NCBI GenBank assembly: GCA_051294375.1 | Contig: CM119271.1 | Span: forward strand, 17,013,799-17,077,798 | Reading direction: 5' to 3' | DNA length: 64,000 bases | Source of the DNA: Paraspadella gotoi | Lineage: Eukaryota > Animalia > Chaetognatha | Shown: positions 19,801-47,608 of the stretch, piece after piece | Numbering within the stretch: the stretch's first letter is position 1 | How the letters are laid out: each line of letters begins with the position of its first letter | The notes under the pieces: model-generated | Seen by the model: the letters and a program-made list of their open reading frames with translations, nothing else | Databases searched by the model: none | Told to the model about the DNA's origin: nothing | Position numbers and translations under genes: made by a program

Positions 19801-20413
19801 ACGACTAAGCCGCCGTCCAGCAGCAAAACCAAAGATAGAAATATGAACGAACAATGGCGGCGACGACGAGAACGACGAAAATAAGAGGCGACGCTTCGAA
19901 ACCACTCGCCTCGATCATGATCCAGGCCACTGATCCAAGCGTCAACCGCACCAAACGTCATCGAACATGAGACACTCCCGTTATCCCGCTCCCCGTCGAC
20001 GCACCAAAGAGAAGAATCATCGCCCGAGGGCAGGCCGCCGCACCCTCACTCAATTTCGGCGCCCCCCGTATTTCACCACGCCATTTGTCGAGCCCCAACG
20101 CCCGAACAGAGGAAGTGTGTCCAACGGCACGAACGCTCACCAGAGGAGAATATGATCTTTGCGGCAGCCGCCATCAACACTTATCTATCATAAATGATAA
20201 ACGCTCTCAACAAAGCCCACTATAACGCCGTTAATACGTCGTTTATTTAGATGTGGTAAAAGATGACTTAAAACATTTTTTTACAATTTTTATATATATA
20301 ATTATGTATATATTGAGTTAGAAGTATTGCGGAGAGCGAAGTAGTGAGCTTACCTCTTAATAAGCCCAAAGCGTGTTCGCGTAAACTATTATGTTTTTCC
20401 GTCTGGGGAGGGA

Positions 20414-20984
20414 TGTAGGATTCGATCTCGAGATATTCATCCCGAATAACTTCATCGACAAAAGATTGGTCCAACTCCAATAGTTTATTTTTTACCTTTT
20501 ACAAACTTTGATTAAAGACTTTATTAGTTTACAACAAATTACTATTTATCTTTGTTTCCCGAACAAATGATCAATCCTGTTTCAAGTTCCATTCATTAAC
20601 AATCAGCTGATTTAGACTTGTTGTGTTTTTTACCTAGCTTAAAATCTGATTTACAAGATAACTAATATTAACAACCTACTTTGAATCTCTCCGGGTTATC
20701 AATTTAATTAGTATCTTTTATTACTAGTTTTATTATTTTAATTGGTTATTAATTAATTAAATAATTAATTTGATTATTGTTACTTCATATAGATATTCTA
20801 ATTGCTTGAAGGCAAAAGCAGTTGAAAATATCTATAATGCCTTTGATGTATTTATTAAGGTTGCTTTTATTGAACTAACCAAGCAAAGTTGGTTATACTA
20901 ACTCCTTACCACAAAGGCACGAAAAAAAAACAATTGGTCGACCGGCCAACGAGCGCTAACTTCAATATATGGTGGCCATCCACA
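20414..20984 (+). repeat. 3' LTR of the Gypsy element
   Basis: tgtaggattcgatctcgagatat ... gagcgctaacttcaatatatggtggccatccaca; preceded by the PPT. Confidence 0.9.
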
Positions 20985-24860: not shown

Positions 24861-25213
24861 GTTTTGGTCGAAGCTCCAGGACGAAGTCAAAAATATTGGT
24901 TATTTATCTTTGAACTTATATTTTTTTTATGCACAAAATTTCAAATTCACTCATTAAATTTGTTCTAAATGATTTACGTATATTTGATAAAATATTTCGC
25001 TCTATTGCGTTTTACCTCGTCTTTTTTCTCTTCTTTGTAGGTGTTTTTTAAAATTTTTAAATTTTTTGTTCAATTTTTTCCAATGTCAACGACCAAATAA
25101 TTTTTATTCGTCATGATGCTATCTATTCATACTAGTTCTTTCTACAAAAATGTTATTTATTTTATCTCTTTGGCATTTCATTATCTTAATATTTTTTTCT
25201 TTCTTACTTTCAG

Positions 25214-27058
25214 ATGTATGACGCTCAATCGATCACCGTTTCAAACCGCATCAAAGCTACCACCGGATTGCCGTTTCAAAATCTACCGTCTTTGGCAAAA
25301 AATCCTCGATCAACCTTTCGTAAAAATGATATTAAGTCTAACCCTTTCAAATGCATGGAGTGCACACGTTCCTTCAAACATCGTAAAATCCTCAACCATC
25401 ACATGCAACAGATGCACATTCCCGGGAGATCCTGGCGCTGCCACTTGTGCTACTACTCGTCAAAATCTAAAATCCGCCTCACGCATCACAAGAAAACGTC
25501 TCACGAGCTTTTCCTTTGCACCGAGTGTGATTTCAGTTCCAAAGACAAATACATCGTCGATGCTCACGTGTCTAAGCACAAAGAGGAAAGGGCCTTCAAA
25601 TGTTCCATGTGTCCCGTTGCTTGTAAGCACAGATATTTATTGCGCAAACATATGTTGACTCACAAAGATGGGGAAGATTCAAAAAACGACGGGAGTCAAT
25701 TCACTGCCGAAACCAAATCTAATTTGATCGAATACACTCGGAGGCGTAGCAAGGAACCTCTTTATAAATGCAAATCCTGCGTTTACTCAACCAACGATAA
25801 AAATTCTTTGCAAATTCATCATCGGAAACATAAGGGATTTTCTCTCACGTATTTTTGTGATTTTTGCGAGTATAGAACTTGGAAAGGAACTCAATTGCTC
25901 AATCACATGGCCGTTCACGGGAGTTTCGAGTGCGGAGTTTGTAAAGTTGTTTTTGAAGATGCCAACTCTTATCTGAATCACGCCAAGAGTCACAAGGCTT
26001 CTGAAGCTCGCGAATTCAACTGCGAAAAATGTAACTTTTCTTCTTCTTTCAAAGGCTGCTTTCGTCGTCATCAACTCAACTGCAATAGTATGAAAACTTT
26101 TGATTGCGATTGGTGCGATTTCAAGTCGGTTTTGAAACAACAGTTGGTCAGTCATTTAAAAATTCACAGACCTCTCAAGTGCCCCTTATGCGGGAGCATT
26201 TTTAAAGAGGGCTTTCATTATGTAAAACATAAAAAAATTCACGGCGTTGAGTCAAGGTTGTTTAAATGCACTTTGTGTAGTTTTGTGACAACTAAAGAAA
26301 ATACATTATACAATCACGCACAAAGACATGAAGCGAGACCAACATTTTCTTGCGTTTCGTGTCAATTCAAAAGTTTGAGTAAGAAAGAGTTGCTCATTCA
26401 CATGACGGCGCATGAACCATTTAAGTGCGATATTTGCAAAATGATTTTCGATCAAGGTCGTGACTATCTGAAACATTTGAAGGCGAACAATATGCATAAC
26501 ACAGATCATCAATTCAAATGCCCTAAGTGTGACTTCACTACCGATTATAAACAATCATTGATTAAACATGCTGCCAAACATGGGAAAACAATGCAATTTA
26601 TTTGTTGTTCTTGTGATCGCGGATTTTTTAAAAAGCAAGGTTTGCTTACACATATGATTTTGCATAATTCATTAACTTGCCGTTTTTGCCAACGTGTTTT
26701 TAAAAAAGGAAAAAGTTACTTAAAACATCTGAGAATTCATAGTATGTCAAATTCGGACCAGTTATTTCAATGCAGTTTGTGCAGTTTTTATACAAATTAT
26801 GGATCAGTATTTAAAATTCATCAAAAAAAGCACAATGGAAAGATGCCTTTTGCCTGCGACTTTTGCAGCTACAAGGCTTTGGCAAAGCAGTTATTGACCA
26901 GACATTTAGCAGTCCACAAACCGTTAAGATGCAAATTTTGTCTGAAAATTTTTAAACATCCTCTCGTTTATTTAAATCATATGAAAATTCATAACAAGGA
27001 AAAAAATGAGAAGAATCGAAAAAATGATAAAAAACTTTGTGATGATTCTGTTTCTTGA
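25214..27058 (+). CDS. Multi-C2H2 zinc-finger protein (19 fingers, 614 aa ORF; possibly the last exon of a spliced gene)
   Basis: 19 C-x2-C-x12-H-x3-6-H/C motifs counted in the translation; uninterrupted ORF; ATG directly follows the acceptor ttcttactttcag. Confidence 0.95.
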   Translation: MYDAQSITVSNRIKATTGLPFQNLPSLAKNPRSTFRKNDIKSNPFKCMECTRSFKHRKILNHHMQQMHIPGRSWRCHLCYYSSKSKIRLTHHKKTSHELFLCTECDFSSKDKYIVDAHVSKHKEERAFKCSMCPVACKHRYLLRKHMLTHKDGEDSKNDGSQFTAETKSNLIEYTRRRSKEPLYKCKSCVYSTNDKNSLQIHHRKHKGFSLTYFCDFCEYRTWKGTQLLNHMAVHGSFECGVCKVVFEDANSYLNHAKSHKASEAREFNCEKCNFSSSFKGCFRRHQLNCNSMKTFDCDWCDFKSVLKQQLVSHLKIHRPLKCPLCGSIFKEGFHYVKHKKIHGVESRLFKCTLCSFVTTKENTLYNHAQRHEARPTFSCVSCQFKSLSKKELLIHMTAHEPFKCDICKMIFDQGRDYLKHLKANNMHNTDHQFKCPKCDFTTDYKQSLIKHAAKHGKTMQFICCSCDRGFFKKQGLLTHMILHNSLTCRFCQRVFKKGKSYLKHLRIHSMSNSDQLFQCSLCSFYTNYGSVFKIHQKKHNGKMPFACDFCSYKALAKQLLTRHLAVHKPLRCKFCLKIFKHPLVYLNHMKIHNKEKNEKNRKNDKKLCDDSVS

Positions 27059-27208
27059 AACTCTCGCCATAAACGCCACATGAAACTAATAAACTTTTTT
27101 TTTCAGCTCATATGCTCTGAATCAGTCAAATTGAATGACTTCTTGTAAAATAGTTAAAAAAATGATTGAATAACACAGTCTTGAAACAACCTCCGGCTGA
27201 GACTTATC

Positions 27209-27664
27209 ATGGAATCTGACGATTACTCAGAAGAATGGGAAGATGATCCCAACTGTTGGCGAGACGCTAAGAACATCAACGACGAGGCCAACAACTTCCG
27301 TTGCATAGAATGCGGATTGTCGCTCGGAAGTCGAACGGATATTCTGCGTCACATGAGCGTCCATCTAGACTCGTCGTCCTCGTTTCGCGCCAAAAGACTC
27401 GAGGCTCAATTGCAGGAGCGAATCAAATGCGAATTTTGTTTGCGTCAATTCGGACGAATGGGAGATTTAAGGAGACATTGTTCCCTCGTTCATCGAAAAC
27501 TTAATGAGGAAAAGGGACGATGTTTGACGGCCTCGGATTCTCGCGTTGGAATTGCGGGACTGGGGAGACCGGCTGGACCGAGGAGCCTGGGCAGACCCGG
27601 GAGTCTGGCTGGACCGGAGCTGGACGGAGCAGTGAGACCGGCGCGGAGTAGGAAGGAAAATTGA
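27209..27664 (+). CDS. Small two-finger C2H2 protein with acidic N-terminus
   Basis: CIECGLSLGSRTDILRHMSVH and CEFCLRQFGRMGDLRRHCSLVH; acceptor-like tttttttcag at ~27106; repetitive GC-rich tail. Confidence 0.8.
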   Translation: MESDDYSEEWEDDPNCWRDAKNINDEANNFRCIECGLSLGSRTDILRHMSVHLDSSSSFRAKRLEAQLQERIKCEFCLRQFGRMGDLRRHCSLVHRKLNEEKGRCLTASDSRVGIAGLGRPAGPRSLGRPGSLAGPELDGAVRPARSRKEN

Positions 27665-28145
27665 GTGGTTTTTTGTTTGTTTGTTTGTTAAAAGTTTATG
27701 AATTTAAAGACTTTCTTTCCTCTCGTGAAATTGGTACAACTAATATAAAAATTATCAATACATTTAATGAATAAGCTAACTTGCCCTTGAATAATTTTAT
27801 GCTTAACAAAAGCAATGACTTTTTTTCTTAAATTTTCAAAATATATTTTAAGTTATGCGATACTATAAATCTATTTTTTATAATTTTTAAATTTATAGGC
27901 TCTATAATTTTTCTTTATTTTTTTATTTTTAAGATTATTTTAAAATTAATTTAAAAACTAATTACAAACTTCGCCTCTTGTGACAAATTTGCTTGAATAT
28001 AATATTGTTATTGTTTTTAACGTCATAAGATCTGGACATTCATTTAAAAAATAGACAAACTTTGTTCAATAGTAAAACTTTAAAACTCGAATTATCGAGG
28101 AAATAATATATAATATATCTGTTGGATATTTTCATGAATTAAAAT

Positions 28146-28290
28146 TTTTTATCGAACCAGGACAGGCTTCGCCTGGTCCTGACTCTATAAGGTTTTAAGA
28201 TTTCTTCTTTGTCGTCGTCTAAAAACTTTTATTATCGCCATTTAATCCGCGCTTTTTATCTCAATACAAAATCCCAAAATACAATAACTT
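28146..28290 (+). mobile_element. Helentron/DINE-1-like 5' end
   Basis: ttttatcgaac-caggacaggc(ttc)gcctggtcctg-actctataag then gtcgtcgtc. The internal aaaacttttattatcgccattta.tccgcgc segment is shared with 39511-39567. Confidence 0.5.
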
Positions 28291-28521
28291 ACTTGACCTA
28301 GATTTCGGGGCAACGAGTAAATAAAGTCGATGAACATGACCAAATAACGCGTTCGATGGCAACGGAAACGTTACGTGTATAAAAAAAAAAGTGACCTAAT
28401 TTCACGCCGCCGTTGTGAGGCAACGGATAACCGAGATAAACGAGAGTGACCTAATAATGCGTCTTGTTGGTGGGAAAACTCTCTCTTTCTCTCACTCTCT
28501 CTTTCTCACTCTCTCTATCTC

Positions 28522-28720
28522 TTTTTTAGTCGGATCTGCTTATCAGCAGATCCCGACTCTATAATTCACTTAGTCGGTCCGCCTCCTCAATATTGTCAGA
28601 CACTAACTTATATCATGGAATGAAATTTTGTGTGTGGGTAGGGAAGTGTGTGATTGAGCTGGATATGAAGTTTCGATGGAATCGTGCGAGTGGAAATGAG
28701 TTAAAATGGAAAAAAATTTA
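28522..28720 (+). mobile_element. Helentron/DINE-1-like 5' end (second copy at 49399-49470)
   Basis: ttttagtcggatctgcttatcagcagatcccgactctataattcact..gtcggtccg: terminal hairpin followed by (GTCG) repeats at both loci. Confidence 0.6.
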
Positions 28721-29119
28721 CTCAGTTTTTTTTTTTTTTTTTTTTTTTTTTGCTTTTCTTTTGTGAATCAGCAGGGCGCGAACCCGAGTCCTTTGGATTG
28801 GGAGGATTTCGCGCTACCTCCAGCGCTACCGGACAAGTAGAGGGGCTGTTCAGCTTCTCTCTCCCTCTTTTAATTATATGTCACCCTCTCTCTTTTTCTC
28901 TGTCGCTACTGATTCTGATTTGTGACGTAGTCGTTGTCATCATAATCCAGGTTAAGCCACTCTTTTATTCTCGCTCGCAACTTCTCTCAAGTAGCTATTA
29001 CAATATAAACCTGTGGCTGTGGCAATACATGTAAATCGCTTTCAAGGGCTTAAACTGAACTGTTACTGCGGCAATAATAATAATTTTTTGAAATTTGCAT
29101 TCATTTTTTACTTTTTTAT

Positions 29120-31655
29120 TTTTTTCAACTTGCATAATTTTTAACTTCAAATTCACTTTGCATTAATTTTTTGTCAACTTGCATAATTTTTCAACTTGCA
29201 TTAGATTTTTTCAACTTGCATATACTTATTTCACTTGCATAATTTTTTCAACGTTGCATAATTTTTTCAAACGTTGCATAAATTTTACTGATATTTTCAA
29301 ACTTGCATAATTTTTATTCAATTTTAACTTGCCATAATTTTTTAACTTGCAATTTTTTCAAACTTGGCATAATTTTTCACTTCAATTCTTGCATAATTTT
29401 TTTCCAACTTGCATAATTTTTTTTCAACTTGCAAATTTCAACTCATATTTTTTCCAACTTGCATAAATTTTTTCAACTTGCATAATTTTTTCAACTTGCA
29501 TAATTTTTTCACTTGTAATTTCAACTTACATATTTTTTTCCAACTTGCTATTTCATTGATATATTTTTCAACTTGCATATTCAGATAATTTTTTTCCAAA
29601 CTTGCATAATTTTTTTCAACTTGCATAATTTTTTTCAACTTGCAATAATTTTTTCAACTTGCATAATTTTTTCCAACTTGCACTAATTTTTTCAACTTGC
29701 ATAATTTTTTTCAACTTGCATAATTTTTTCAAACTTGCATAATTTTTTCAACTTGCATTAATTTTTCAAACTTGCATAATTTTTTCAAACTTGCTAATTT
29801 TTTTCAACTTGCATAATTTTTTTCAACTTGCATAATTTTTTCAACTTGCATAATTTTTTCAACTTGCATAATTTTTTTCAACTTGCATAATTTTTTCAAC
29901 TCATAATTTTTTCAACTTGCATAATTTTTTCAACTTGCATAATTTTTTCAACTTGCATAATTTTTTCAACTTGCATAATTTTTTCAACTTGCATAATTTT
30001 TTCAAACTTGCATAATTTTTTCAACTTGCATAATTTTTTCAACTTGCTAATTTTTTCAACTTGGCATAATTTTTTCAACTTGCATAATTTTTCAACTTGC
30101 ATAAATTTTTTAACTTGCATAATTTTTTCAACTTGCATAATTTTTTCAACTTGCATAATTTTTTCAACTTGCATAACTTTTTTCAACTTGCATAATTTTT
30201 TCAACTTGCATAATTTTTTCAACTGCATAATTTTTTCACTTGCAATAATTTTTTAACTTGCATAAATTTTTTAACTTGCATAATTTTTTCAACTTGCATA
30301 ATTTTTTCAATTGCATAATTTTTTCAACTTGCATAATTTTTTCAACTTGCATAATTTTTCAACTTGTAATCATCAATTTTTTCAACTTGCATAATTTTTT
30401 CAACTTGCATAATTTTTTCAACTTGCATAATTTTTCAACTTGCATAATTTTTCAACTTGCAGATTTTTTAATTTTTAACTATCTAGTTATCAAGTTCCAT
30501 TAGTGAGGCAGCGAGGAAGTTCAAATGTGTATCTATTTTATATGTTTTATTATCCATTCAAATATTTTTTATTTGCATTTCCATTTAATTATGATTTACT
30601 GCAATATGCAAATTAGATTAAAGTAATTTTTCATTAATTTTCTTTGATAGTAAGGTCTGGCGATTTTTTTTTTTTGCATTGATTTTCTTTGGATTTTATT
30701 TTACTTTTTAAAATGTTCCTTTTCAGTAGCAACGTTCCCATACTCACTACAACAAAAAAATTGGCACAAGCTAATAGACACAAAAAATCTAACTATGCCG
30801 AAAATCACGACGAATCCGCTTCCCCAATCCATTCCTTATGAGTGCAAAAGAAAAGATTGTGGATTCAAAACTTTCAACGACGTTGATTTTCTCTTTCACA
30901 ACGAACGACATAAACAGGAAAAGATTACCGGGCGTCGAGTGTCAATTCTCGTGCAACACGCGAAGCAAAATCGTGAGTCACATGAATCTCACAGTGACGA
31001 AAAAGCCTATCGATGCAACTCTTGTGAGTTCACGGCGCGAGCCTCTCCGGTCTCCTCAGCATCAAAAGATGCACAAGAAAAACAAATTCCTTGATCTCTC
31101 TCTTTTTTTTTTTTNNNNNNNNNNNNNNNNNNNNNNNNNTCAACTTGCATTAATTTTTCAAACTTGCATAATTTTTTCAAACTTGCTAATTTTTTCAACT
31201 TGTATTTTCACATAATTTTTCAACTTGGCATAAATTTTCACTTGCATAATTTTTTTCAACTTGCATAATTTTTTTCAACTTGCATAATTTTTTCAACTTG
31301 CATAATTTTTTCAACTTGCATAATTTTTTCAACTTGCATAATTTTTTCAACTTGCATAATTTTTTTCAACTTGCATAATTTTTTCAACTTGCATAATTTT
31401 TTCAACTTGGCATAATTTTTTCAACTTGATTTTTTCATCATAATTTTTTCAACTTGCATAATTTTTTCAACTTGCATAATTTTTTCAACTTGCATAATTT
31501 TTTCACTTGCATAATTTTTTCAACTTGCATAATTTTTTCAACTTGATCATCAATTTTTTCAACTTGACATAATTTTTTTTCTATCAACTTGCATAATTTT
31601 TTTCAACTTGCATAATTTTTTCAACTTGCATAATTTTCTTGCAATCAACTTGCAG
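29120..31655 (+). repeat. 16-bp satellite (ttttttcaacttgcataa-type)n, two blocks 29120-30462 and 31140-31655
   Basis: Roughly 100 tandem copies, interrupted by a duplicated ZF segment and a 25-N gap. Confidence 0.95.
30795..31093 (+). pseudogene. Truncated duplicate of the 32 kb ZF gene (probably an assembly duplicate)
   Basis: 30463-31093 is nearly identical to 31658-32289 and stops just before a 25-N gap. Confidence 0.7.
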
Positions 31656-31988
31656 CATTTTTTAATTTTTAACTATCTAGTTATCAAGTTCCATTAGTGA
31701 GGCAGCGAGGAAGTTCAAATGTGTATCTATTTTATATGTTTTATATCCATTCAAATATTTTTTATTTGCATTTCCATTTAATTATGATTTACTGCAATAT
31801 GCAAATTAGATTAAAGTAATTTTTCATTAATTTTCTTTGATAGTAAGGTCTGGCGATTTTTTTTTTTTGCATTGATTTTCTTTGGATTTTATTTTACTTT
31901 TTAAAATGTTCCTTTTCAGTAGCAACGTTCCCATACTCACTACAACAAAAAAATTGGCACAAGCTAATAGACACAAAAAATCTAAACT

Positions 31989-32494
31989 ATGCCGAAAATC
32001 ACGACGAATCCGCTTCCCAATCCATTCCTTATGAGTGCAAAAGAAAAGATTGTGGATTCAAAACTTTCAACGACGTTGATTTTCTCTTTCACAACGAACG
32101 ACATAAACAGGAAAAGATTACCGTGCGTCGAGTGTCAATTCTCGTGCAACACGCGAAGCAAAATCGTGAGTCACATGAATCTCACAGTGACGAAAAAGCC
32201 TATCGATGCAACTCTTGTGAGTTCACGGCGCGAGCCCTCTCCGGTCTCCTCCAGCATCAAAAGATGCACAAGAAAAACAAATTCCCTTGCGATGAATGCG
32301 GAAAGGAGTTCAACTTGAAACGATATTTGGTTAGACATAAAAAAAAAATGCACACGAGACAAGAAGAAGAAAAAAGGAAAGGAGGCGAAATGTCGGAGAA
32401 AGAAACTGATAAATCTGATGTATCGAACTCGCTTCATTTTCGGGATTGTCATGATTGTAGCGAGTATCTTAATGTTATCTTATTGTTATTTTGA
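31989..32494 (+). CDS. Four-finger C2H2 protein gene with frameshifts (pseudogene or consensus errors)
   Basis: Joined frames give CKRKDCGFKTFNDVDFLFHNERH, CVECQFSCNTRSKIVSHMNL(H), CNSCEFTARALSGLLQHQKMH and CDECGKEFNLKRYLVRHKKKMH; acceptor ttttcag at ~31919. Confidence 0.75.
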
Positions 32495-32654
32495 TTTTTT
32501 TATTATTTTTTTTTTGCTTACTTTGTCGGTCTGTCGATCTATATAACTATAGGCCTATAGTATATTAAAAGTATTTTTTTTAACATTCCCTCTTAGCTTG
32601 TGGTATCATTAAATTTTGTCATATATATGCATTTAATACTTGCATAATTATTAA

Positions 32655-33818
32655 GGCGGAACAGGTTACAAACTAACAGAAGTCCGGTATAAATATTGTT
32701 AATGTGTTTATTAAAGATCGCGAAAATAAAAACAAATTTAAGATTTATTTTATAGTTAAATGCATGGAAGCTATTTTATATTATCCAAATATAACTATAT
32801 AGTATATAACTATAATATGAAAAAAAATTTTATAAATTTTAATTTTTTTTATAGGATTCTGATAGAACTTGAAAAGTTAGATGACGGTTGTTATTACAAC
32901 TTTTTGAGGTTTTAATCTATAAAAATTAACAAAAACTATAAAATTTAATGAATGATAATAATAATTTTTTAAAGTTTTTTTCAAATTTTACCCCATTTTT
33001 CATTTAACATTTGTAATACTAACCTTAATCTAATTTTTTTTCTTTATCTGAATCTATTTTGAAAAATTTTAATTTAAAAAAATTTTAAGCATTTTTTATA
33101 TATTATTAAATATTAAAATTTTTCCATGCATGAGTAGGGGTAGCTGCACTCAATGGGGTGAGTCAAAAATTTACAGCAAGTACATGCTCAAACATTTTTA
33201 AGTATACTTTCAATGGACAAAAAATTTCTTATATGGCTCTATAATTTAGTAATTAATTTTTTAATATTTATTTATAAAAAGGAAAGGCCAAAGTTTCTTT
33301 TTTAAATTTTAAGACCAGATTTAGATAGCTCATAAAAAGTTGTCTGTACAAAGTATAATTCTTTTATAAAGATTTTTATGATAAGTGAGTCAAAAATAAG
33401 AAAAAACATAAATTGTCATCATCATCATATTTCGATGATTTTATCGGTTTTTTAAATTTTTATTTAGATAACATAATTTTTTTAAAAAGTGTATTTATAT
33501 TTTTTGTTTAACTTTTTATGCTCTCAGAATCCATCAAAAAAATTTAAAATTTAAAAAAAAATTTTTTTGCTCTATATAGTAATATAATAATTTTAATTAG
33601 GTGAGTACCTTCAGAAAAAAACATTTTTAAATAAAAATATTTTAATACCATAATATTTGCTCATGATTGATTATTTTAACACTGTATACATTAACTTTTA
33701 AATTTCATCGGCTATGGCTTGCATGAGGAAAATTAACTTAATCAAAATCTAACATCATAAGTAAATTTTGTTATAAAAGGATAAAATACTTTTATTACAG
33801 TTTAAATTCTGGCCCGCC
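32655..33818. mobile_element. Non-autonomous TIR element, Kolobok-like (TTAA|GG..CC|TTAA); paralog at ~35445-36422
   Basis: ttaa-ggcggaacag ... ctggcccgcc-ttaa with an AT-rich interior. Confidence 0.55.
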
Positions 33819-34193
33819 TTAATAGTTAATTAGTTATGTGTTAATGTAAAAATACAGTTGCATAATTATTTTTTTTAATAGGTTATAAACATGTTTCATA
33901 CTTGTGTTAAGGTTTTACTCATATGTTGGGAATTTAAAACTCAGGTCAATAATAATGTCTAATTTATGTTTAAATTAAAATTAAATTTCTATACTCAATA
34001 TAAAAATTATCCATATATTCAATAACTGTTAATTAAACTCTCTTGTCTTGTAATTTTAGACAGGGTCTGCACCTTTCATTTTGCATTGCGATTGACTTAG
34101 TACTGCAATATTTTAATTCAACTTGTCTGCAGTTAAAAATATCTTTTCTTTATCCTATTTAGATAAAGTGCCGCTCAAAAAAAATAAAACAAG

Positions 34194-34644
34194 ATGGAGG
34201 ATTCTCACGATCCTCAGTTCAAATGCACAGAAAGAGGTTGTGACTTCAAATCAATCAATTACATTGACTATATATCGCACAAAAAACAGCATGATCAATG
34301 GATTTGCATGGAGTGCAATTTTTCTGCCAGAAGCAGAGACAAATGCGGAAAACATGAGTTTGCATTTCAACGAAAAACCTTATCGATGCACCACTTGTGA
34401 GTTCACGGCGCGATCCATCTCCGGTCTGCTCCAGCATCAAAAGATGCACACAAAAAACAAATTCCCTTGCGATGAATGTGAAAAGGAGTTTAAATTGAAA
34501 CGATATTTGGTTAAACATAAACAAAAAATGCATAAGAGACAAGAAGAAGAAAAGAGGAAAGAAGGAGAAATGTCGAGAAAGAAACTGATAAATCTTATGT
34601 CATCGATCTTTCTGCATTTTTGGGATTGTCGTGATTGTAGCTAG
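34194..34644 (+). CDS. Chimeric four-finger C2H2 gene, frameshifted at ~34340-34352
   Basis: 5' half (MEDSH..EKPYRC) is near-identical to the 36.7 kb gene; 3' half (CEFTARSISGLLQHQKMH..) is near-identical to the 32 kb gene; acceptor cctatttag at 34162. Confidence 0.75.
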
Positions 34645-34813
34645 TATCTTAAAATTATCTTATTGCTATTTTGTTTGTTTTTTTGGCTTACTTTGTCAGT
34701 CTGTTGTATATAGCTATAGGCCTATAGGATATTAAAAGTATTTTTTTAACATTCCCTCTTAGCTTGAGGCATCATTAAATTTTGTCATATATATGCATTT
34801 AATACTTGCATAG

Positions 34814-35429
34814 TAGAGTGGAGCACTCAAGAACAAAAAATTTATTTGAATGATCGAACAATGATATTTAAATGTGAGATAGTATGATTAACTAGTACAA
34901 AAAATATTTCGTTCATATTATCTCGGGAACAGAATAGCAAAATATAATATATTTGTAGTAATATCCTTATAAAATAGTAAATTTTAAAAATAATTTTTAT
35001 AAAACTTTTAATAAAGATTCAGATTCTTCATAAAAAGTTGAATCAAAAATATAAAACATGTTATCAAAAATTCTGTTTAAAATAAGAAAAAAGGTAAAAA
35101 TTCCTGACTTTTTTATTCTCTGTAGTAGAAACTTATATATGTTAAAACGTTTTAGTCATTTTTTGGATCTAAACATTAAAATATCATATAACATATTTTA
35201 TAAAAGTTTCTTAGTTTTTTACACGCGAATCCAAATCAGTTCTTAAAAATAAAAAAAAATTATTTTGAAATTTAACGATTTTATAAGGATATTACTACAT
35301 AAATAATTGAATTTGCTATACTGTTATGCTAAAAAAATTTTTAAAAGGATTTAAAATTCATTAATTATATGTTCATAGGCAGCAAAAAAATAATGTTCAA
35401 TCACTCAATCTTTTCATCACTCCACCCTG
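34814..35429. mobile_element. hAT-like MITE
   Basis: 8-bp TSD ttgcatag (34806-13, 35430-37); TIRs tagagtggag / ctccaccctg; empty site in the paralog at ~32640 (tacttgcataattattaagg). Confidence 0.8.
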
Positions 35430-35986
35430 TTGCATAGTTATTAAGGCGGAACAGGTTACAAACTAACAGAAGTCCGGTATAAATATTGTTAGTGTTTATT
35501 AAAGGTCGCGAAAATATAAACAAATTTAAGATTTATCTTATAGTTTAACGCATGGAAGCTATTTTGTATTATCCAAATACTATATAATATCAAAAAAAAA
35601 TTTTTCATAAGTTTTATTTTTTTTAAGGATTCTGATAGCTTGAAAAATTAGATGACGGTTATTATTACAACTTTTTGAAGTTTTAATGATTTATCTATAA
35701 AAATTAACAAAAACTATAAAATTTAATAAATGATGATGATGATAATAATTTTTTAAAGTTTTTTCAAATTTTACCCCATTTTAAAACATTTGTAATACTA
35801 ACCTTTATCTATTTTTTTAATCTTTATCAGAATCTATTTTGAAAAATTTAAATTTAAAAATATTTTTAAGTATTTTTTATATATTATTAAATATTAAAAT
35901 GCTTGATTGCATGAGTAGGGTTAGCTGCACTCAATGGGGTGAGTCAAAAATTTACAGCAAGTACATGCTCAAATGAAAATTTATAC

Positions 35987-36219
35987 TGAAGAGACAGTAA
36001 TTATTGATAAGTGTTAATGACAGAACCGTTCAATATAAGCAGTCCCTGAGCTTCGGATCAGGCGGGTTACCATGTTACAGGCGGGTTAAGCGCCCCATCC
36101 CTCTTAACTGCCAGACGACCACCGGGCTAGAACCCCGGACCTTTGGGTTGGGAGGCGAATGACTTGCCTCCGGCACCAATGGCCGCTGATGAACGGTTAG
36201 TGGATTTTAGTCCACCATA
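35987..36219 (-). mobile_element. ~235-bp element with an internal tRNA-Gly-like segment (second copy 43450-43668, +)
   Basis: Minus strand gcggccattggtgccggaggc..cgcctcccaacccaaaggtccggggttctagcccgg; flanked by atac/atac; absent from the paralogous site at ~33190; internal inverted repeat aaccgttca/tgaacggtt. Confidence 0.65.
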
Positions 36220-36770
36220 ATACATTTTTAAGTAAATTTTCAATGGACAAAAAATTTATTATATGGCTCATGATAGATTATTTTAACACTTTACTCAATA
36301 ACATTTAAATTTCATTGGCTATGGCTAGCATGAGGAAAATTAATTTAATCAAAATATAACATAAGTAAATTTGGTTATAAAAGGATAAAATATTTTTATT
36401 ACAGATAAAATTCTGGCCCGTCTTAATATAAAAATACAGTTGCATAATTATTTTTTTAATAGGTTATAAGCAAGTTTCATACTTGTGTTAAGGTTTTACT
36501 CATATGTTGGGATTTAAACTCAAGTTAATAATAAGGTCTAATTTATGTTTAAAAGGCTATAATTAAATTTCTATACTCAATATAAAAATTATCCATATAT
36601 TCAATAACTGTTAATTAAACTCTCTTGTCTTGTAATTTTAGACACCTTGCACCTTTCATTTTGCATTGCGATTGATTTTTTAATTCAACTTGTCTGCAGT
36701 TAAAAATCTCTTTTCTTTATCCTATTTAGATAAAGTGCCGCTCAAAACAAAAAACAATCCAACTAACGAG

Positions 36771-37343
36771 ATGGAGGATTCTCACAATCCTCGGTTCAAA
36801 TGCACAGAAATAGGTTGTGACTTCAAATCAATCAATTACATTGACTATATATCGCACAAAAAACAGCATGATCAATGGATTTGCATGGAGTGCAATTTTT
36901 CTGCCAGAAACAGAGACAAAATGCGGAAACACATGAGTTTGCATTTCAACGAAAAACCTTATCGATGCGACGAGTGTGATTTTGCAGCAAAATTGAGAAA
37001 AAGTCTTTGGGAACACAAGAGGATTCATTCTGACCATTCTAAAGACTTCTCTTGTGAAAAATGTCACAAAAATTTTGCATGGAGGAGTAACCTGGTTCGA
37101 CATCAAATAACTATGCATTCAAACAAGCGTCAATTTAAATGCAGTCTTTGCTCCTTGACTTTTAAAAATAAATATGCTGTTGATTCTCATTTGATTTCGC
37201 ACAAGAAAGAGAAACTTTGGAAGTGCAATTTTTGTCATGTGAGGTACAAATTTAGAAATTCCCTCAGGAGGCATTCTCGTATGTGCAAACTCAAGCCAGA
37301 GGATACTAAACCTTTACAAATGTTCAATTCTAGTTTTAAATAA
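36771..37343 (+). CDS. Six-finger C2H2 protein (intact exon from the acceptor at 36730)
   Basis: Five C2H2 fingers plus a terminal C2HC finger; EKPYRC linker; open frame to TAA at 37343. Confidence 0.9.
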   Translation: MEDSHNPRFKCTEIGCDFKSINYIDYISHKKQHDQWICMECNFSARNRDKMRKHMSLHFNEKPYRCDECDFAAKLRKSLWEHKRIHSDHSKDFSCEKCHKNFAWRSNLVRHQITMHSNKRQFKCSLCSLTFKNKYAVDSHLISHKKEKLWKCNFCHVRYKFRNSLRRHSRMCKLKPEDTKPLQMFNSSFK

Positions 37344-37440
37344 TATTTTGATTGTCAGTTGCTAAAGACTTTTTACAACTGTTCCTTAACTTTTTTTTTA
37401 AATTCTGACAAAGTAGTTTTAAATTGCACCGCAAGTATTC

Positions 37441-37700
37441 GCGGAGCAACTCTAAGTCACTTTTTGGTCGGTTGGAATGTCTGTCCATTGGTCTGTCCCA
37501 CTTGGTTAATGCTTTAGTAATAAAGTTCATATTTGGAATGAAGATAAGGCACCATAAGACCTTTACGTGATCACCTTAAAAATTGATCATACCACCCAAA
37601 ATTGAATGCGGCTTATATTCAGTTGTTTTTTTGTTAATTTTGCGGAATAGGAAGGAACCTCAAATCTAAGCGACTCTTAGTGACACCTTTTGTTTTTAAC
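37441..37700 (+). mobile_element. Helentron/DINE-1-like element, homolog of 4948-5122
   Basis: Shared gcaactct..aagtcacttttt.ggtcgg start and aaatctaagcgact..ccttttgtttttaa end. Confidence 0.55.
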
Positions 37701-37969
37701 GAATATACATTGATAATAAAGTCACTAGGGCGAAAAACATATTGGAATCTCCGTTCTTGTTTTAATTTTTTTTTTTTGTACAAATGAAGCTTTAAATATG
37801 ACAAAGAATAATGATTTTTCCCCTTGTCAAAACTCTATAGTTTATTTTCAGTCTCAGTCATATAATTGCATTAATTTTGATGACACCATACAGGGAGGTC
37901 CAGATCTAATGGGATTAACTTCAGTTGTTTATAGCACAAAAATGTGTTGTTAGGGCCAATCTATGTCAA

Positions 37970-38534
37970 TAGGGTGGGTCAGAAATTTGAATTGGGAAAC
38001 TTCCTAAATGAAACTCAAGACATTTATAAAAAACTTTTATTTTAAATATTTAAAACACTAATAATTATTTTTTTCATATTTATTTAGAGATAAGAAATAT
38101 TAAAATCTTTTTTGAATTTTGTATTTTTAAAAAAAATAAAGATAGCTTATAAAAAGTTATTTATACAAAATATTTTTATTCTATATTTTGATAATATATA
38201 AGTTAAAATTTAAAAAACCTTTAAAAATTATTATTATATAATGATTTTAATAGCTTTTGCTAATTTTTAGTAATAAAAGATCAAAATTTTAAAAAGTTAT
38301 AATTATATTTTTATTTAACTTTTTGAGCTTTATCAGAATCAATTTAAAAAAACTTAAAATTGAAAAAAAAAAATTTAATATTATATAGTTATTAGTTAAT
38401 ATAATTAAAATTAGCGAATTACTCGTGGTTCAGGACATTTTTCAAAAAAAATATATTAGCACAATACTTAATACCAATAATAGATTTTTTTAAAGCTGTT
38501 CCCATTAAAATTTTAATTTGGTCGGCTCACCCTA
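37970..38534. mobile_element. MITE with TAGGGTG TIRs (hAT-like)
   Basis: tagggtgggtc ... ggctcacccta; interior similar to 33240-33660; TSD not clear. Confidence 0.45.
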
Positions 38535-38732
38535 CTACTATAATTGATGATTTTTGCATAATACGTCATAATTTTTCGCGCCGTTTCCTTACAAAAAAAA
38601 GGATGACTCCTGACTTTTGACCGCGCAGTTTTTCTGACTGCAATTTCCCTGATTAATAAAAATGTAGGATTTAGTCCCCAAAGAGCTGTACCTTCTTATT
38701 AAACAAAATTTTGATCAGCTTTTAATGGCATA

Positions 38733-39935
38733 TTTTTATCGAGCCTACCGGCGAAGCCGGTTCAGGCTCGATATTGATTCGGGTGAGCTTCTTTGTGACG
38801 TCATCGTCGTCGTCGTCACGTATTTTTATATAAAAACTTCCCGTTTTTTTTTAAATAAAAATTATTATAAATTACAATGAAGTTATATAAAAGTGTGCGG
38901 TCATAGTAAGTTAAAAATTTAGATATGGTTTCGCATCTTGAAATAGCTACAAATTTTCATATTACATTTGGATTCAAGTATTTTTTGTTTGAATTTCCAC
39001 TTCATTATGATTTACTGCAATATGAAAATGAGATTATTGTACTCATAATATCCAAATTAGTATATAGAAATGCTTTAATCTAATTTACATATTGCAGTAA
39101 ATAATATTGAAGATGAAATTCATAAACAAATTTTTGAATCAATAAAAAACATGTGAAATCCAAAGACCTTTTTAATGAAAAGCTATATCTTAATTTTAAT
39201 ACAAATAAAAATAAAATCTTTTACAAGCTATGATTGAAAAAAATTGTAAAAATTTTCAATTGTAAACAATTGTAACATTTTTTCCTTTCTTTTATTTCTT
39301 TAAATTATATATAAATTTTTCTTCCTATTTTTGTCAGTTGTTACTTTTTCTGAACCCTTTAAAAACGAGCTCAGGCTCTGCAGTGACTGTTCAGCTGCCT
39401 TCCAGCAGCTGTCCTGCTTTCTCTCTCTTTCTCTTTCTGTCTCTCTCTCTCTCGGTACGATCTCTTGCGTGATCATTTTTTGAAATATTTTGATTATTTT
39501 TTTCCTTTTAAAAACTTTTATTATCGCCATTTATTCCGCGCTTTTTTCTCAATACAAAATCCCAAATTTGCATGCGAGATTTTCGTGGATTTATTCTCTT
39601 TCTTTCTCTCTCTCTTTCACTCATACACGCATTTGTTTGTTTTATTTATGATGAATGATTCATTGCGTCAATGAATGACTATCATTGCATCAATGAATGA
39701 CTATCATCGTATCAATGAATGATTATCATCACATCAATGAATGACTATCATCGCATCAACCATTTGGTTATTATCACATCAATCATTTGGTTATCATCAC
39801 ATTGATCATTTGGTTATCATCGCATCAATTATTGGTTATCATCGCATCAATCCTTTGGTTATCATAGCATCAATATTTGGTTATCATTGAAGGGAGGCTC
39901 GATCCTATTCTTTTAAGATTTTTTTAAGGTTGTTT
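38733..39935 (+). mobile_element. Helentron-associated (HINE/DINE-1-like) element with internal tandem repeats
   Basis: 5' hairpin atcgagcct-accggc(gaa)gccggt-tc-aggctcgat, (gtc)n microsatellite, ~21-bp tandem array at 39655-39890, 3' subTIR aggctcgat at 39895-39903. Confidence 0.7.
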
Positions 39936-40086
39936 GATACAAAATAACTGATCAATCTATTATCGAGATAAATATTAATTTTATTTAAAAAATCTGTTTT
40001 ATATTTTTTCATTTAAAACTAGGTAAATACAACTAAAAACGAAACAAAAAATATATTGAACGAACATTGTTAGTGTTAGTAACAAC

Positions 40087-40569
40087 ATGGAATTTTTCAC
40101 AACCAAAAACAATTTATATTCTTCACATCAAAAACAGAAAAATCAAGATAAACAGTTTACCTGTATTGAATGTGCGTTTCACTCCAGCACCAGAAAATTA
40201 ATGCTGAAACACATGCGTTCGCACAGTATTAAAAAAACTTGGCCTTGCGACCAATGCCATTTCTCCGCAAGAACCCAAGAAAGACTCACAGATCACCAGA
40301 AGACGCATTCTCACCTTGAAATCTCCTGCGAAAAATGCGATAAAAAATTTTCAAGAAGATGCAATTTATTGCGACATCAATTATCAGTTCACTCCAACTC
40401 TCGTTATAAATGCGAGTATTGTTCTTTAACATTTAAAAAAAAATTTGCGTTTAATTCTCATTTAACGACTCACAAGGTGAAAAAACTTTGGAAATGTAAT
40501 TTGTGCAACAATATGTACGATTTGGAAGATTCATTGGAAAAACATTCTTGTGGTTTTAATGTACTTTAG
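40087..40569 (+). CDS. Five-finger C2H2 protein, paralog of the 36.7 kb gene
   Basis: Finger-by-finger similarity (SCEKC..F....NL.RHQ...HSN; CSLTFK.K.A..SHL..HK..KLWKCN.C). Confidence 0.88.
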   Translation: MEFFTTKNNLYSSHQKQKNQDKQFTCIECAFHSSTRKLMLKHMRSHSIKKTWPCDQCHFSARTQERLTDHQKTHSHLEISCEKCDKKFSRRCNLLRHQLSVHSNSRYKCEYCSLTFKKKFAFNSHLTTHKVKKLWKCNLCNNMYDLEDSLEKHSCGFNVL

Positions 40570-40923
40570 TAAATATGTTTTTGATTGTTAGTGTCGTAGA
40601 AATAACGTCATGATATTTTGAACTGTCTCCTTAATTAGGTCTGGAAATGTGTAACAAATTATTTTTAGCATTGTGCATCTTAAATTGTATAAGAATATTT
40701 TAAAATAAAAGAAAATAAAATAAAACGAGTGCCTTTAAAATAATCTGATCATAATTTGATGTATTAGTTACATTATCCTCATTTTGTTAATACGTATCTG
40801 CTCTGACATCAATCGCTAATAAATTCAAAAATTCGTCCGATCAAATTCCGTTTGCTCTTTGACTTTACCTTTAGAAGAGAGAAAAACCTTGAAAATGTTT
40901 ATTATTCAATTATTTATTTATTT

Positions 40924-41588
40924 TGTGGATAAGGCGCTAAGTGGGCTGAAGATGACTATCCGTAACTTTTATAACCCCCTCTAGCAGCTATGGAACGGGC
41001 TTGGAACCAGGCTTGAGGGTTTTCCACTCCCCCAAGGCGGCTTACGGCCGTCCTCACACTTCCCGCAGAGTAGGTACCGGGTTGGGATTGAACCCGGTAC
41101 CTAGTGGTCATGAGCTGATAGCTTTACTCAATGAGCCACTGGGTCACGACTGAAGGTGTCATGCTTAGAGGCGGGGTGAACTTTGTAATGCCCGACTACA
41201 TGCCCCCCAGATTGTAACCCACCCTGCACTGCTTCCAGTGGAGGAGGGGAGCAATTTTCAGCACATCCATGGGCCTGGAATCAGAAGGTTGGAATACGCT
41301 CGACAGGGTGGGCTCACCAGTGTGGATAAGGCGCTAAGGTGGGCTGAAGATGACTATCCGTAACTTCTATAACCCCCTCTAGCAGACATGGAACGGGTCC
41401 GGGGCTTGGACCCAGGCTTGAGGGTTTGCCACGCCCCCAAGGCGGCTTACGGCAGGGTAGGTACCGGGTTGGGATTGAATCCGGTACCTAGTGGTCATGA
41501 GCTGATGGCTTTACTCAATGAGACACCGGGTCACAACTGAAAGGGTTATGCTTATAGGCGGGGTGAACCTAGGCAATGCCCGACTACA
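40924..41588 (-). mobile_element. TRIM (miniature non-autonomous LTR retrotransposon) with tRNA-derived sequence inside the LTRs
   Basis: LTRs 41588-41321 and 41200-40924 (TGTAG..TCCACA); 120-bp interior with PBS TGGTGAGCCC and PPT GGGGGGCA; TSD ATTT (40920-23, 41589-92); A box TGGCTCATTGAG and B box GGTTCAATCCC in the LTR. Confidence 0.88.
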
Positions 41589-43449
41589 ATTTCGTTATTT
41601 ATTTTTTTTATTATTATTTTTAAAGCTCAAGTTGAGAATTCCAACGTTTTTATCCTGGGAAGAAACAATGTCATGTTTTATTATCCTATTCGCTTGTTTA
41701 CTTGGGACAAAAAATTTTTAAACGGGTTAATTTTTTTTTTTGTTTAATGGTTTGCGTAGTGTTTTTGACTGTAATAAACAAATTGGGAAATAAACTAATG
41801 ACATTGGAATAATTTAATCATCAGATTTGTTTAATAATTTTCTTTCACTAACCATGAAGTGATGTACAATTTCAAAGGTTAAAAAAAATTGGAACTAAAC
41901 TTTGTATCTTAAGTCAGAGGGAGTTTTCCCACTTGAAGTTAGTAAGTGTTATTAATAGTGTTATTTCTCTAATTCAGTCAATGAACAAATGTAACTATTA
42001 TGTTGAGGGGCGAAGATAATTTAAAGTAAAACTTTTTAATATCTTTTCACGTTATCTGTCTCTCTCTCCCTTTCTCTCTCGCTCTCTCTCTTGTCTAAAT
42101 TAAATTGAGACAAATGCTGATTTGCGGTAAAGAACAAATTTGCTGCTCAAGCATCACCCCTGCTGCGCTGAGGGACGCCGCAACCAAGGTTAAGGGGAAG
42201 AAGGAACAAAATAAATAAGAAGGGAGAGAAAGATAGAGAGAGAGACGAAAGAATGTGGAGGAGCGAAAAAAAAAGAATTAGAGAAAACGAGAAAAAGAGA
42301 CAGAAATAAAGAGGGAGAGAAAGTGGAACAAAAAAAGAGATCTAATGGCGACGAAATAGGAAAAAAGAAAACCTAAAAAAAACCCTGGCAAGATTAGAAA
42401 AAGAGATAGAGAGAGAGAGAGAAGATTGAAGAAGCTTCAAACTCCCGATCCTTGATTGTGCGGAAAGCTAAGTAGGTGCTTCAATTTACATGATTAATCA
42501 GGGGACAACATCTTTAGACGTAGAGGACCAAAAGTGGGGATTTTGGTAAGGATAATGATGATTCTTAATGTTTGGTGAGTTAGTAGCCACAGCCCTTCCT
42601 ATTTATTTTAGGGAAAATTCCCAAAAATTCAAAACCGAACCGAAATGTGAATTTGGGAATGGGAATTTGTTAATTTCTAATCCGTTTGATTAGAAACAGA
42701 TCTTTGCTTTGAGCAATGAGCATATTCATATTCACTCTCAATATGAGTTTCAGTTATTCGTTTGTAATTATTAAGTATGTGTAAATGTTTGTACAATTTA
42801 CAAAATTGTACAATCCATCCCTTTTAATAAAATATCACCTTTCTCTAAATGCATTAAGCCATGTGTTTTATATGTACTTCAATTTCCAGAATTTCTCGCA
42901 TTTCCGTAATTCTTTCAACTTTTAAGCATATTTTCCACAAGTGTCAAATTTTACTTTATATTTAATATTAAGGTTAGAGACAAAGGTTATATTTTGGGAC
43001 TAGGTTAAGGATTTGGTTATGGAATAAAAATAGGGAACTTGGTTAAGGATTAGTAGCGAGAACACAAGATTTTTATTTAAAACTTTTTTCTAACTAATTT
43101 GGTACCGAACGATAGGGAATTCTATTTGAGCGCTTCATGCAAAAAATCAGCACAATCGGTCCAGGCATTCAAAATTTATGGCCAAAAACGTCATCCAAAA
43201 ATCGCTTCCTCGCGTAATCAAGTCGCCCTATGTTAAGGATTTCGTTTTTGGTTCCATAAGGATTTGTACTACAAGTACGGTACGAGTAGAATGCTTGTTT
43301 CCGGGCCCTGTAGAAAACAGATCTCGGAGATCGAAGCTCGACAAATCGGAAACTGATCGTGATATTTGCAAAAATAAATATTTTTACGTCTTTAACTATT
43401 TTCCTTTAATATTAATTATTACTAAATATTTACTTTGGCAGTAAAATTT

Positions 43450-43668
43450 GGACTAAAATCCACCAACCGTTCATCAGCAGCCATTGGTGCAGGAGGTCAT
43501 TCGCCTCCCCTTCCAACCCAAAGGTCAGGGGTTTTAGCTCGGTAGTTGCCTTGCAGTAAAGAGGGACAGGGCGCTTAACCCGCCTGTTACAGCCTGATCC
43601 AAAGCTCAGAAACTGCTTATATTGAACGGTTCTGTAACTTACACTAACAATTATTACTGTCTCTTCAA
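43450..43668 (+). mobile_element. Second copy of the tRNA-Gly-like element
   Basis: Reverse-complement homolog of 35987-36219. Confidence 0.65.
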
Positions 43669-44346
43669 GATTTTCATAGTTAATTTAAAATGAATATTAT
43701 GAGTAAGAATACATTAAATATCTTTTAAAAAGAATCCTCTATTAGGAAAAGTATAAACTAGTTTATCAAGGAAGCAAGGGATCAAAGAATGCCACCAACT
43801 ACGAACGGCTCCTTGGCGATGGAGGGTGAAGATGACCGAGATTGAATTTAATTTTAATTTAATTGAATGAGTAACGGAATTTTAGTTGACCTTTCTCGGT
43901 GTCGGCTCGGCAAAGTTGTCCTGACAATGTCGGGAGAGTCAATGAATGAGGGAACGTATAAAAGACATGACCCAAGTTTCATAGCATCCATTTGCTCTAA
44001 TAGCCATGGGCGCGAATTATTTTAAGAAAAAATTATATGGTTCCAAGATGACCTTATCAGCTTTGTACTTTCGCAATTTTGACTAAATGTTATTAATGAT
44101 AGGTCATAGGTCATTGAATACAAAACCAAATTAATAACTAATACCCGCTGCCTTAACATCATTAATATAGTCTGAGCATAGTAATCTTAACCTATAATTG
44201 TTATAAAAGTTTTGTGAAAGAAAAATTAATAATTATAATTAGTATTATTATTGTTTGTGCCTCTGTACATTTAGTTTCGATCACGTTGGCTGACTTTAGT
44301 CCAGAATTTGGAACTCGTTGGTAAGTTTTAATATCAACAAACACAT

Positions 44347-46614: not shown

Positions 46615-46894
46615 TGTAGTCGTCATAGCATAAGTTCACGCTGCCTATAGGCTAAAACACTTTCAGTCGTGACCTGGTGGTTCATTGAGTAAAGCCATCA
46701 TGACCACGAGGTACCGGGTTCAATCCCAACCCGGTACCTACTCTGCGGGAAGCGTGAGAACGGCCGTAAGCCACCTTGAGGGCGTGCAAAACCCTCTAGC
46801 CTGATTCCAAGTCCAGGACCCGTTCCGTGGCTGCTGGAGGGGATAGAAGAAGCTGTGGATAGTCATCTTCAGCCCACTTAGCGCCTTATCCAAT
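46615..46894 (+). mobile_element. Solo LTR of the tRNA-bearing TRIM
   Basis: Same termini (tgtagtcg ... gccttatccaat), 4-bp TSD GAAT (46611-14, 46895-98), same A/B boxes and hairpin. Confidence 0.85.
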
Positions 46895-47348
46895 GAATTA
46901 AATATCTGGATTAAAATTAAACAACGAAAACGTGACGCTTTCCGAAAATAGTGCCAAACGTTCCTCTTAACCGAATCCCAAAATGTTACTTTTTCTTTGT
47001 TTTGATTTTTTTTGGTTTTGTTTTCCGATTTCTCTCCTTGTTTTTTGTTTTTCGCTGCGACGATTTTTAGCTTAAAATCGTCGGAATCCCATTGAGATTC
47101 GTTTATCTCTGTCGTCGTCGTCGTCGTCGTCGTCGTCTCATCATCATCATTATCATCGTCTTCTTGATCGTTGTCGTTAATTGTCCCTCTGGGTCGTTGT
47201 CGTTGTTGTGAATGCGCGGGAAAAAGGAGACTGGGGGGTGATGTTGACGTTGTTGTCGTCGTCGTTTTTGGTCTTCAATTTTAACGTATAATTTAATCAT
47301 ATCATAATAGGAGTATCTTAACAGGAGTTTAATAACAGGAGTATCATA

Positions 47349-47608
47349 ACAGGAGTATCAAGCCACTAAAAGAAAATTGAATCGGAGACTTGGGCGATCT
47401 CCGCGGAAATGGAATTGCCGAATCCTGATTGGTCGAGAATGGAACCGGATTCGACCAATCCGCTTGCAGGATCATCGGAACTGTAAATTCTACCCACGTC
47501 GCCGATCCTCTTTCTTAGCTATAAATAGTCTCCTGCGTGTGTCTCACCGTCACCTTCATTCTCAGAATAAAATCTCATCTTGATTTCACACGACTAAATC
47601 CATGAGTT
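47349..47608 (+). mobile_element. LTR-like repeat (TATAAATA ... AATAAA); uninterrupted homolog of the sequence split by the Gypsy (13009-13182 + 21024-21104)
   Basis: caggagtatcaagccac .. gatcctct..tag.tataaata | ctcctgcg.g.gtctcaccgtcacctt.attctcagaataaa .. aaatccatgagtt at both sites. Confidence 0.7.

Follow-up and report, generated by a model that had tools for sequence, protein, structure and literature searches.

Structure of a noncoding LTR element in Paraspadella gotoi

The 64,000-nucleotide (nt) window analyzed here (Paraspadella gotoi, assembly GCA_051294375.1, contig CM119271.1, positions 17,013,799 to 17,077,798) contains on its minus strand, at 41588 to 40924, a 665-nt element that has two long terminal repeats (LTRs), is shorter than 1 kb, and contains no open reading frame (ORF), as is typical of miniature LTR retrotransposons (TRIMs). 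This element and the twister-like ribozyme fold predicted in its LTRs are the subject of this report. The following features belong to the element and its family.

41589 to 41592, minus strand: 5' target site duplication (TSD), AAAT
41321 to 41588, minus strand: 5' LTR, 268 nt, with one changed base in each of the A and B boxes and without 18 nt that include the twister GAGGA block
41310 to 41319, minus strand: primer binding site (PBS), 1 nt past the 5' LTR
41201 to 41320, minus strand: noncoding interior, 120 nt
41201 to 41208, minus strand: polypurine tract (PPT)
40924 to 41200, minus strand: 3' LTR, 277 nt, with 7 nt deleted from the 3' strand of P4 in the twister-like fold
41127 to 41138, minus strand: A box of the 3' LTR
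41084 to 41094, minus strand: B box of the 3' LTR, within a 12-bp hairpin (41102 to 41072)
40996 to 41059, minus strand: predicted type-P5 twister-like fold of the 3' LTR
41044 to 41448, minus strand: predicted 405-nt unit from cut site to cut site (fold z -3.9)
40920 to 40923, minus strand: 3' TSD, AAAT
46615 to 46894, plus strand: solo LTR of the TRIM family, 86% alike, TSD GAAT, terminal AT rather than CA

Both LTRs (268 and 277 nt) begin with TGTAG and finish with TCCACA, in agreement with the initial annotation of this DNA, which had described ~270-bp direct repeats with these ends; the 120-nt interior, the PBS, separated from the 5' LTR by 1 nt, and the PPT were also found where it had placed them. 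Alignment of the two LTRs gave 240 identical positions of 259 (93%; K2P distance, 0.077) and gaps of 18, 7, 1, and 1 nt. The 4-bp TSD is perfect, AAAT on the minus strand being the ATTT reported for the plus strand, and has a chance probability of ~0.009 given the AT-rich flanks. The position of the PBS and its TGG start fit a tRNA 3' end, and 9 of its 10 letters match the Trp site listed by Kojima (PMC10886601). Priming by half of an initiator tRNA-Met, as in fungal Helenus elements, was considered on the basis of seven letters in common but is not favored, since the TGG start suits a CCA end. The two ends of the interior pair in the predicted fold of the element, and the fold of the interior alone was not above that of shuffled sequences (z 0.0).

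Between 41186 to 41148 and 41574 to 41535, several of the differences between the LTRs are polymorphisms of the family, a pattern that points to gene conversion or to the presence of two subfamilies in one element. Because several differences (41168, 41148, and the U3 block) coincide with such polymorphisms, no age was derived from LTR divergence.

Family size and fixed ends

Nine of 11 sequencing runs, all of one organism and from three studies, with none recorded as RNA, contain the stretch; contigs of four of these runs were mapped on the element, and those of two were mapped again. One run guessed to be RNA (X7) was treated as DNA because its mapping mirrors that of DNA run X8. In run X2, 7756 contigs map to the element, with summed depths of 3e5 to 1.3e6 in the LTRs, 1e5 to 3.6e5 in the interior, and 177 in the flank; summed depth is no copy number but suggests a family of thousands of copies. 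The interior was present at high depth in three of the four runs. Loose contig ends of run X2 are piled up at the LTR ends (78 at 40924 and 24 at 41321), where the flanks are AT-rich and unlike one another (agreement, 0.40 to 0.44), and 61 contigs at 41183 bear the TG start. Such piles of loose ends beside unlike flanks indicate fixed ends and therefore an LTR element rather than a short interspersed element (SINE).

Variable ends or TSDs, which according to the initial annotation would have spoken against an LTR element, were not observed: the ends are fixed in many contigs, and both of the two insertions in the window have a 4-bp TSD. The search for solo copies that it proposed yielded, within the window, the solo LTR at 46615 to 46894 with its own TSD GAAT. 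That LTR, the twister-like fold, and a candidate Gypsy helper had been overlooked, so the earlier account was incomplete. The pattern of the LTR ends had no match among the metagenome contigs searched.

A putative tRNA-derived promoter block without a terminator

The coordinates given initially for the A box (41138 to 41127) and the B box (41094 to 41084) are correct, and the A box is present inside each LTR; it begins at LTR position 63 and not, as described, some 50 nt inside the LTR. The box sequences reported hold for the 3' LTR, whereas those of the 5' LTR, which would need to drive transcription, are each one base off. In run X2, 99% of the family depth is free of the change at 41523 (A box) and 93% of that at 41480 (B box), and the copy in the window is therefore probably silent; it is probably dead.

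The words TGGCT and GGTTC occur in the LTR at a spacing of 45 nt, and the YGG part of the Helenus motif was not matched. This spacing corresponds to the T8-G53 distance of a standard tRNA. The tRNA-like block noted earlier thus stands as a tRNA-derived pair of boxes and not as a genuine tRNA: ARAGORN found no tRNA gene in the block, the Rfam tRNA model gave no match to the LTRs at an E value of ≤10, and the cloverleaf stems are paired at 4/7, 3/4, 2/5, and 2/5 positions. A functional tRNA was ruled out by the ARAGORN result and the poor stems. A tRNA-headed SINE, with a 5' tRNA, a simple-repeat tail, and a variable TSD, was rejected on account of a tRNA block located 55 nt inside the LTR, a fixed CA end, and a 4-bp TSD. 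On sequence grounds, the box pair likely recruits RNA polymerase III (Pol III).

On its sense strand, the element has no T run of more than 3 nt and thus no Pol III terminator (T4); the first T4 lies 29 nt downstream, in the AT-rich flank. T4 runs are missing from both intact-ended families of the window, namely, the TRIM family and the second family described below. The initial annotation had proposed a SINE/LTR hybrid transcribed by Pol III from LTR to LTR. A TRIM with a tRNA-derived A/B block was retained from that proposal, whereas plain LTR-to-LTR transcription is incomplete as an account because a terminator is needed and the element is without a T4 run. A TATA-like word is located at LTR positions 33 to 37 in the 5' LTR, in the solo LTR, and in 72% of the family depth.

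A predicted twister-like fold behind the B box

The fold was first indicated by a weak Rfam match, and the reference layout was taken from PMC8501958. In the 3' LTR, it comprises P2' (41059 to 41056), GAGGA (41055 to 41051), a 6-nt mini-P1 linker, P2 (41041 to 41039), T2 (41038 to 41037, GC), P3 (41036 to 41012, 8 bp), P4 (41011 to 41007), and L4 (41006 to 40999). The twister features U^AA, the general-base G, the L4 loop with its AAGC end, T1, T2, and P4 are all present, and both pseudoknots, T1 and T2, are Watson-Crick. The cut is predicted behind the B box at U^AA, 41044^41043 in the 3' LTR and 41449^41448 in the 5' LTR. T1 is paired at 3/3, T2 at 2/2, and, owing to the deletion, P4 at 3/5 positions. 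The descriptor matches the 3' LTR once, and shuffled sequences were matched in 65 of 5000 cases with the relaxed form and in 2 of 5000 with canonical letters.

Each LTR of the TRIM family in the window is damaged in its own way: the 5' LTR is without the GAGGA block, the 3' LTR is missing part of P4, and the solo LTR has T1 and P4 mismatches. In favor of the fold, T2 of the solo LTR is altered on both of its sides, P4 and L4 are completed by the letters that 99% of the family depth shows at 41401 and 41411, and the fold variants at the family level, among those listed, affect a wobble position, the bulge, or the loop of P3.

No Rfam twister reached the gathering score anywhere in the window, and the twister layout pattern had no match in the metagenome or viral contigs searched. 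A twister of type P1 built on the GAGGG further downstream (41379) was rejected, since its P2 would be unpaired and the G in question is replaced by A in 11% of the family depth. No hammerhead, the ribozyme of retrozymes, was matched in the LTRs of the element, in which the twister-like fold takes its place.

The same layout in a second LTR family

A loose twister pattern led to a second family, which has no detectable sequence similarity to the TRIM family and an identical spacing of the fold.

35987 to 36219, minus strand: family 2 copy B, solo-LTR-like, unrelated to the TRIM family; TSD GTAT; contains motifs resembling the A and B boxes and repeats the twister layout
43449 to 43667, plus strand: family 2 copy A, 81% alike; no TSD seen, 5' end indistinct

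The A/B-like boxes of family 2 are spaced 45 nt apart, and copy B, which has no T run longer than 2 nt, is fully paired in T1 (3/3), T2 (2/2), and P4 (5/5). The letters of T1, P2, P1, and the top P4 pair differ from those of the TRIM family and yet pair. Pairs were read copy by copy because the MAFFT alignment was shifted by one column between the families. The fixed layout has four matches in the window, all of them within the two LTR families, whereas 150 shuffled windows had a mean of 0.1 matches and none reached 4. This agreement across families is the strongest evidence that the fold is under selection.

Some further observations concern these repeats. Copy B is located within a duplicated segment whose paralogue near 33192 is without it and has a small deletion beside the empty site. 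A 25-nt stretch that matches the 5' part of copy A in inverted orientation (43443 to 43467 and 44285 to 44309) perhaps reflects the loss of that copy's 5' end through a local inversion. A stray descriptor match at 13016 lies outside the LTRs of both families, in a further dispersed repeat with copies ~70% alike at 13002 to 13182 and 47342 to 47527.

A candidate Gypsy helper

The window also contains a decayed element that shares its termini with the TRIM.

13183 to 20984, plus strand: decayed LTR retrotransposon of Gypsy order, 7.8 kb, TSD AATA, candidate helper type

Its LTRs are ~90% alike over the aligned columns, and its heavily frameshifted pol pieces follow the order reverse transcriptase (RT), RNase H, and integrase (tblastn E values of 1e-3 and 2e-34 with P0059). 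The letters that start and end the LTRs are common to the TRIM and the Gypsy element, and the 5' part of the TRIM interior resembles the start of the Gypsy interior at 13837. In comparison windows picked after the match had been noticed, the shared junction at the PBS region was equaled in 0 of 2000 shuffles, the 16 of 18 shared nucleotides past the PBS in 1 of 2000, and the PPT junction in 11 of 2000. The Gypsy element is likely to represent a helper type for the TRIM. The CsRn1 clade is characterized by a Trp PBS, a 4-bp TSD, a CHCC gag, and a GPY motif (PMC2582038 and PMC3630058). The Gypsy order and a 4-bp TSD were found in the element, and a Trp-like PBS and GPY were recognized by eye; from the PBS, TSD, and GPY motif, we infer that it may be CsRn1-like.

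Genomic surroundings

At least six C2H2 zinc-finger reading frames are clustered at 25190 to 40569, part of them in duplicated segments, and their best matches are animal proteins with 21 to 33% identity. The last of them is followed after 355 nt by the TRIM, which is on the opposite strand. Two pairs of near-identical (94%) duplicated segments, 1 to 933 with 5129 to 6048 and 29966 to 31090 with 31140 to 32285, contain N gaps and frameshifts and are possibly assembly errors or uncollapsed haplotypes. An AT-rich tandem array extends over ~29080 to 30470.

Comparison with known TRIMs and retrozymes

The initial annotation had referred to animal TRIMs with 4-bp TSDs under the name Helenus, and both the name and the TSDs are confirmed by Kojima 2024 (PMC10886601). 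In that paper, Helenus comprises TRIMs whose LTRs contain tRNA-like sequence, with TSDs of 4 bp in animals and Gypsy elements as likely helpers, the use of Pol III being unproven. The element described here resembles animal Helenus (TRIMp3) in being a noncoding element of <1 kb with TG..CA LTRs, a tRNA-derived A/B block, a putative PBS, a PPT, a 4-bp TSD, solo LTRs, and a likely Gypsy helper. It differs in having a twister-like fold instead of a T run behind the tRNA block. Its PBS string was not found in the accessible part of the supplement of PMC10886601, and the main text, as available, reports no ribozyme for any Helenus.

Of 30 complete Helenus LTRs from Data S1 of PMC10886601 that were inspected by eye, 28 have a T4 or longer run behind the B box. 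The exceptions are Helenus-2_SyJa and Helenus-2_SyUm of Synergus wasps, in which hammerhead core letters follow the tRNA block (also by eye), a core that goes unremarked in the available text of the paper. These two share with the P. gotoi element a 277-nt LTR, a tRNA block in the 5' half, a Trp-like PBS, the lack of T4, and a ribozyme-like core after the B box, but their core is of the hammerhead and not the twister type, and their interior is 485 to 487 nt long.

Plant LTR retrozymes (Cervera, Urbina, and de la Pena 2016, PMC4918200) have, as found or predicted for the element described here, a ribozyme in each LTR, a PBS and a PPT, a 4-bp TSD, a Gypsy helper, and a stable cut-to-cut unit. 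They differ in their type III hammerhead, their tRNA-Met PBS, their plant hosts, and the lack of a tRNA-type promoter, and whereas cleavage and circles have been shown for them, both are predicted for the element described here. Our fold has the L4 and L1 letters, both pseudoknots, and the P3/P4 order in common with Rfam Twister-P5 (RF02684) and with the twister variants found in Perere-3 of Schistosoma (PMC8501958). However, Perere-3, a non-LTR autonomous element, has twisters of type P1, and our fold has the P5 order, a 6-nt P1 linker, and a short, bulged P2 and scores far under the Rfam cutoff. Cassandra is likewise a TRIM whose LTR contains a Pol III promoter from a small RNA, but it is a plant element with a 5S-derived promoter, its own terminator, and an 18-nt repeat (as described in PMC10886601). 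No animal LTR element with a twister was found in the literature searched; most subscription papers were outside the search, and the supplements of twister surveys may list copies. The element would thus be a candidate new Helenus-type family and, with the predicted twister, a form between Helenus and retrozymes.

Proposed mechanism and alternatives

We hold with moderate confidence that the element is a noncoding, high-copy-number TRIM of the Helenus type in whose LTRs a tRNA-derived box pair for Pol III is followed by a predicted self-cutting fold of the twister type. Pol III would start near LTR position 55 and, without a terminator, would transcribe through both LTRs. The ribozyme would cut U^A in each LTR to release a ~405-nt unit without a terminal repeat, which a host ligase would join into a circle. 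Inside the circle, a competing hairpin would keep the cut site blocked, a Trp-like tRNA would prime at the PBS, and the Gag, RT, and integrase of a Gypsy element like that at 13183 to 20984 would copy and insert the unit. The circle is included because in the plant retrozyme model the unit must circularize for reverse transcription (PMC4918200). The predicted 405-nt unit folds better than 100 of 100 shuffled sequences (z -3.9; -3.4 as a circle), the z value of the antisense strand being -1.9.

Several results weigh against this reading. The Rfam Twister-P5 model (RF02684) scored 13.8 bits against a gathering cutoff of 37.6, via a different alignment, and gave no match on the other two LTRs. 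In all four parsed copies, P2 has three pairs and a bulge, one base short of the 4-nt P2 of published twisters (PMC8501958), and P1 is a single pair; flaws in P1 and P2 are tolerated by the twister according to McKinley 2024 (PMC11662667), but those data are restricted to type P1, whereas the fold described here is type P5. None of the three TRIM-family LTRs of the window has an intact fold. A competing hairpin over the cut site has a probability of 0.4 to 0.5 in the footprint and of ~0.99 before P3 and P4 form, and covariation among the three copies did not exceed that of shuffles (251 of 500). The descriptors were composed after the sequence had been seen, and a looser one gave 13 matches in 20 shuffled windows; the variants considered are the 40 listed of 119 in the mapping table. 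The lack of T4 is by itself frequent by chance (794 of 2000 shuffles), and the two interiors compared in full, TRIM against Gypsy, are not significantly similar (25 of 300).

A plain Helenus, as initially annotated, in which the twister is inactive or a relic and Pol III reads to the T run of the flank to yield a long repeat, is unlikely but credible. The atypical P2 and P1, the low Rfam score, the lack of an intact copy within the window, and a first T4 only 29 nt past the element would fit this view, which does not account for identical spacing and pairings in a second family without detectable similarity or for the confinement of the listed fold variants to the P3 loop, bulge, and wobble position. 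We consider it about as unlikely that an active twister instead forms the 3' end of a linear RNA, the 5' ribozyme often being blocked while the 3' one cuts, with a ~100-nt repeat, ordinary strand transfer, and no circle. The blocking hairpin is indeed the first to form, the ribozyme occupies the place of the T run in other Helenus LTRs, and a start near position 55 with a cut after 157 would leave a usable repeat. However, a newly inserted element has two identical LTRs, so that no known factor would restrict cutting to one of them, circles accumulate for plant LTR retrozymes (PMC4918200), and the cut-to-cut unit folds unusually well.

It is very improbable that the LTR is an RNA polymerase II promoter with the tRNA block as a passive SINE remnant. 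Although the LTR has the TATA-like word, the block forms no cloverleaf, and Pol III use by Helenus is unproven (PMC10886601), the 45-nt spacing of the A and B boxes has been kept across two families while the stems decayed. Most remote of all is the view that there is no LTR element but tandem SINE copies or an assembly artifact. The gaps, duplicated segments, and many frameshifts of the window could be cited for it, but the fixed ends, the PBS and PPT, the 4-bp TSDs, the solo LTR, and the deep interior coverage are against it, and contig mapping has already largely refuted it.

Implications

LTR retrozymes have been described mainly as plant elements based on hammerheads (PMC4918200). If the proposed mechanism is true, the combination of a tRNA promoter and a twister in an animal LTR would give the twister a role in LTR retrotransposition, would explain how RNA ends are formed by a terminator-less Pol III LTR element, and would add a compact natural twister variant, and small circular RNAs would arise from the thousands of copies. 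More tentatively, we suggest that a self-cleaving ribozyme may repeatedly have taken the place of the Pol III terminator in animal TRIMs, in the form of a hammerhead in Synergus and of a compact twister variant of type P5 in several families here, and that these TRIMs may thereby have become Pol III-driven LTR retrozymes that travel as ~400-nt circles in Gypsy particles.
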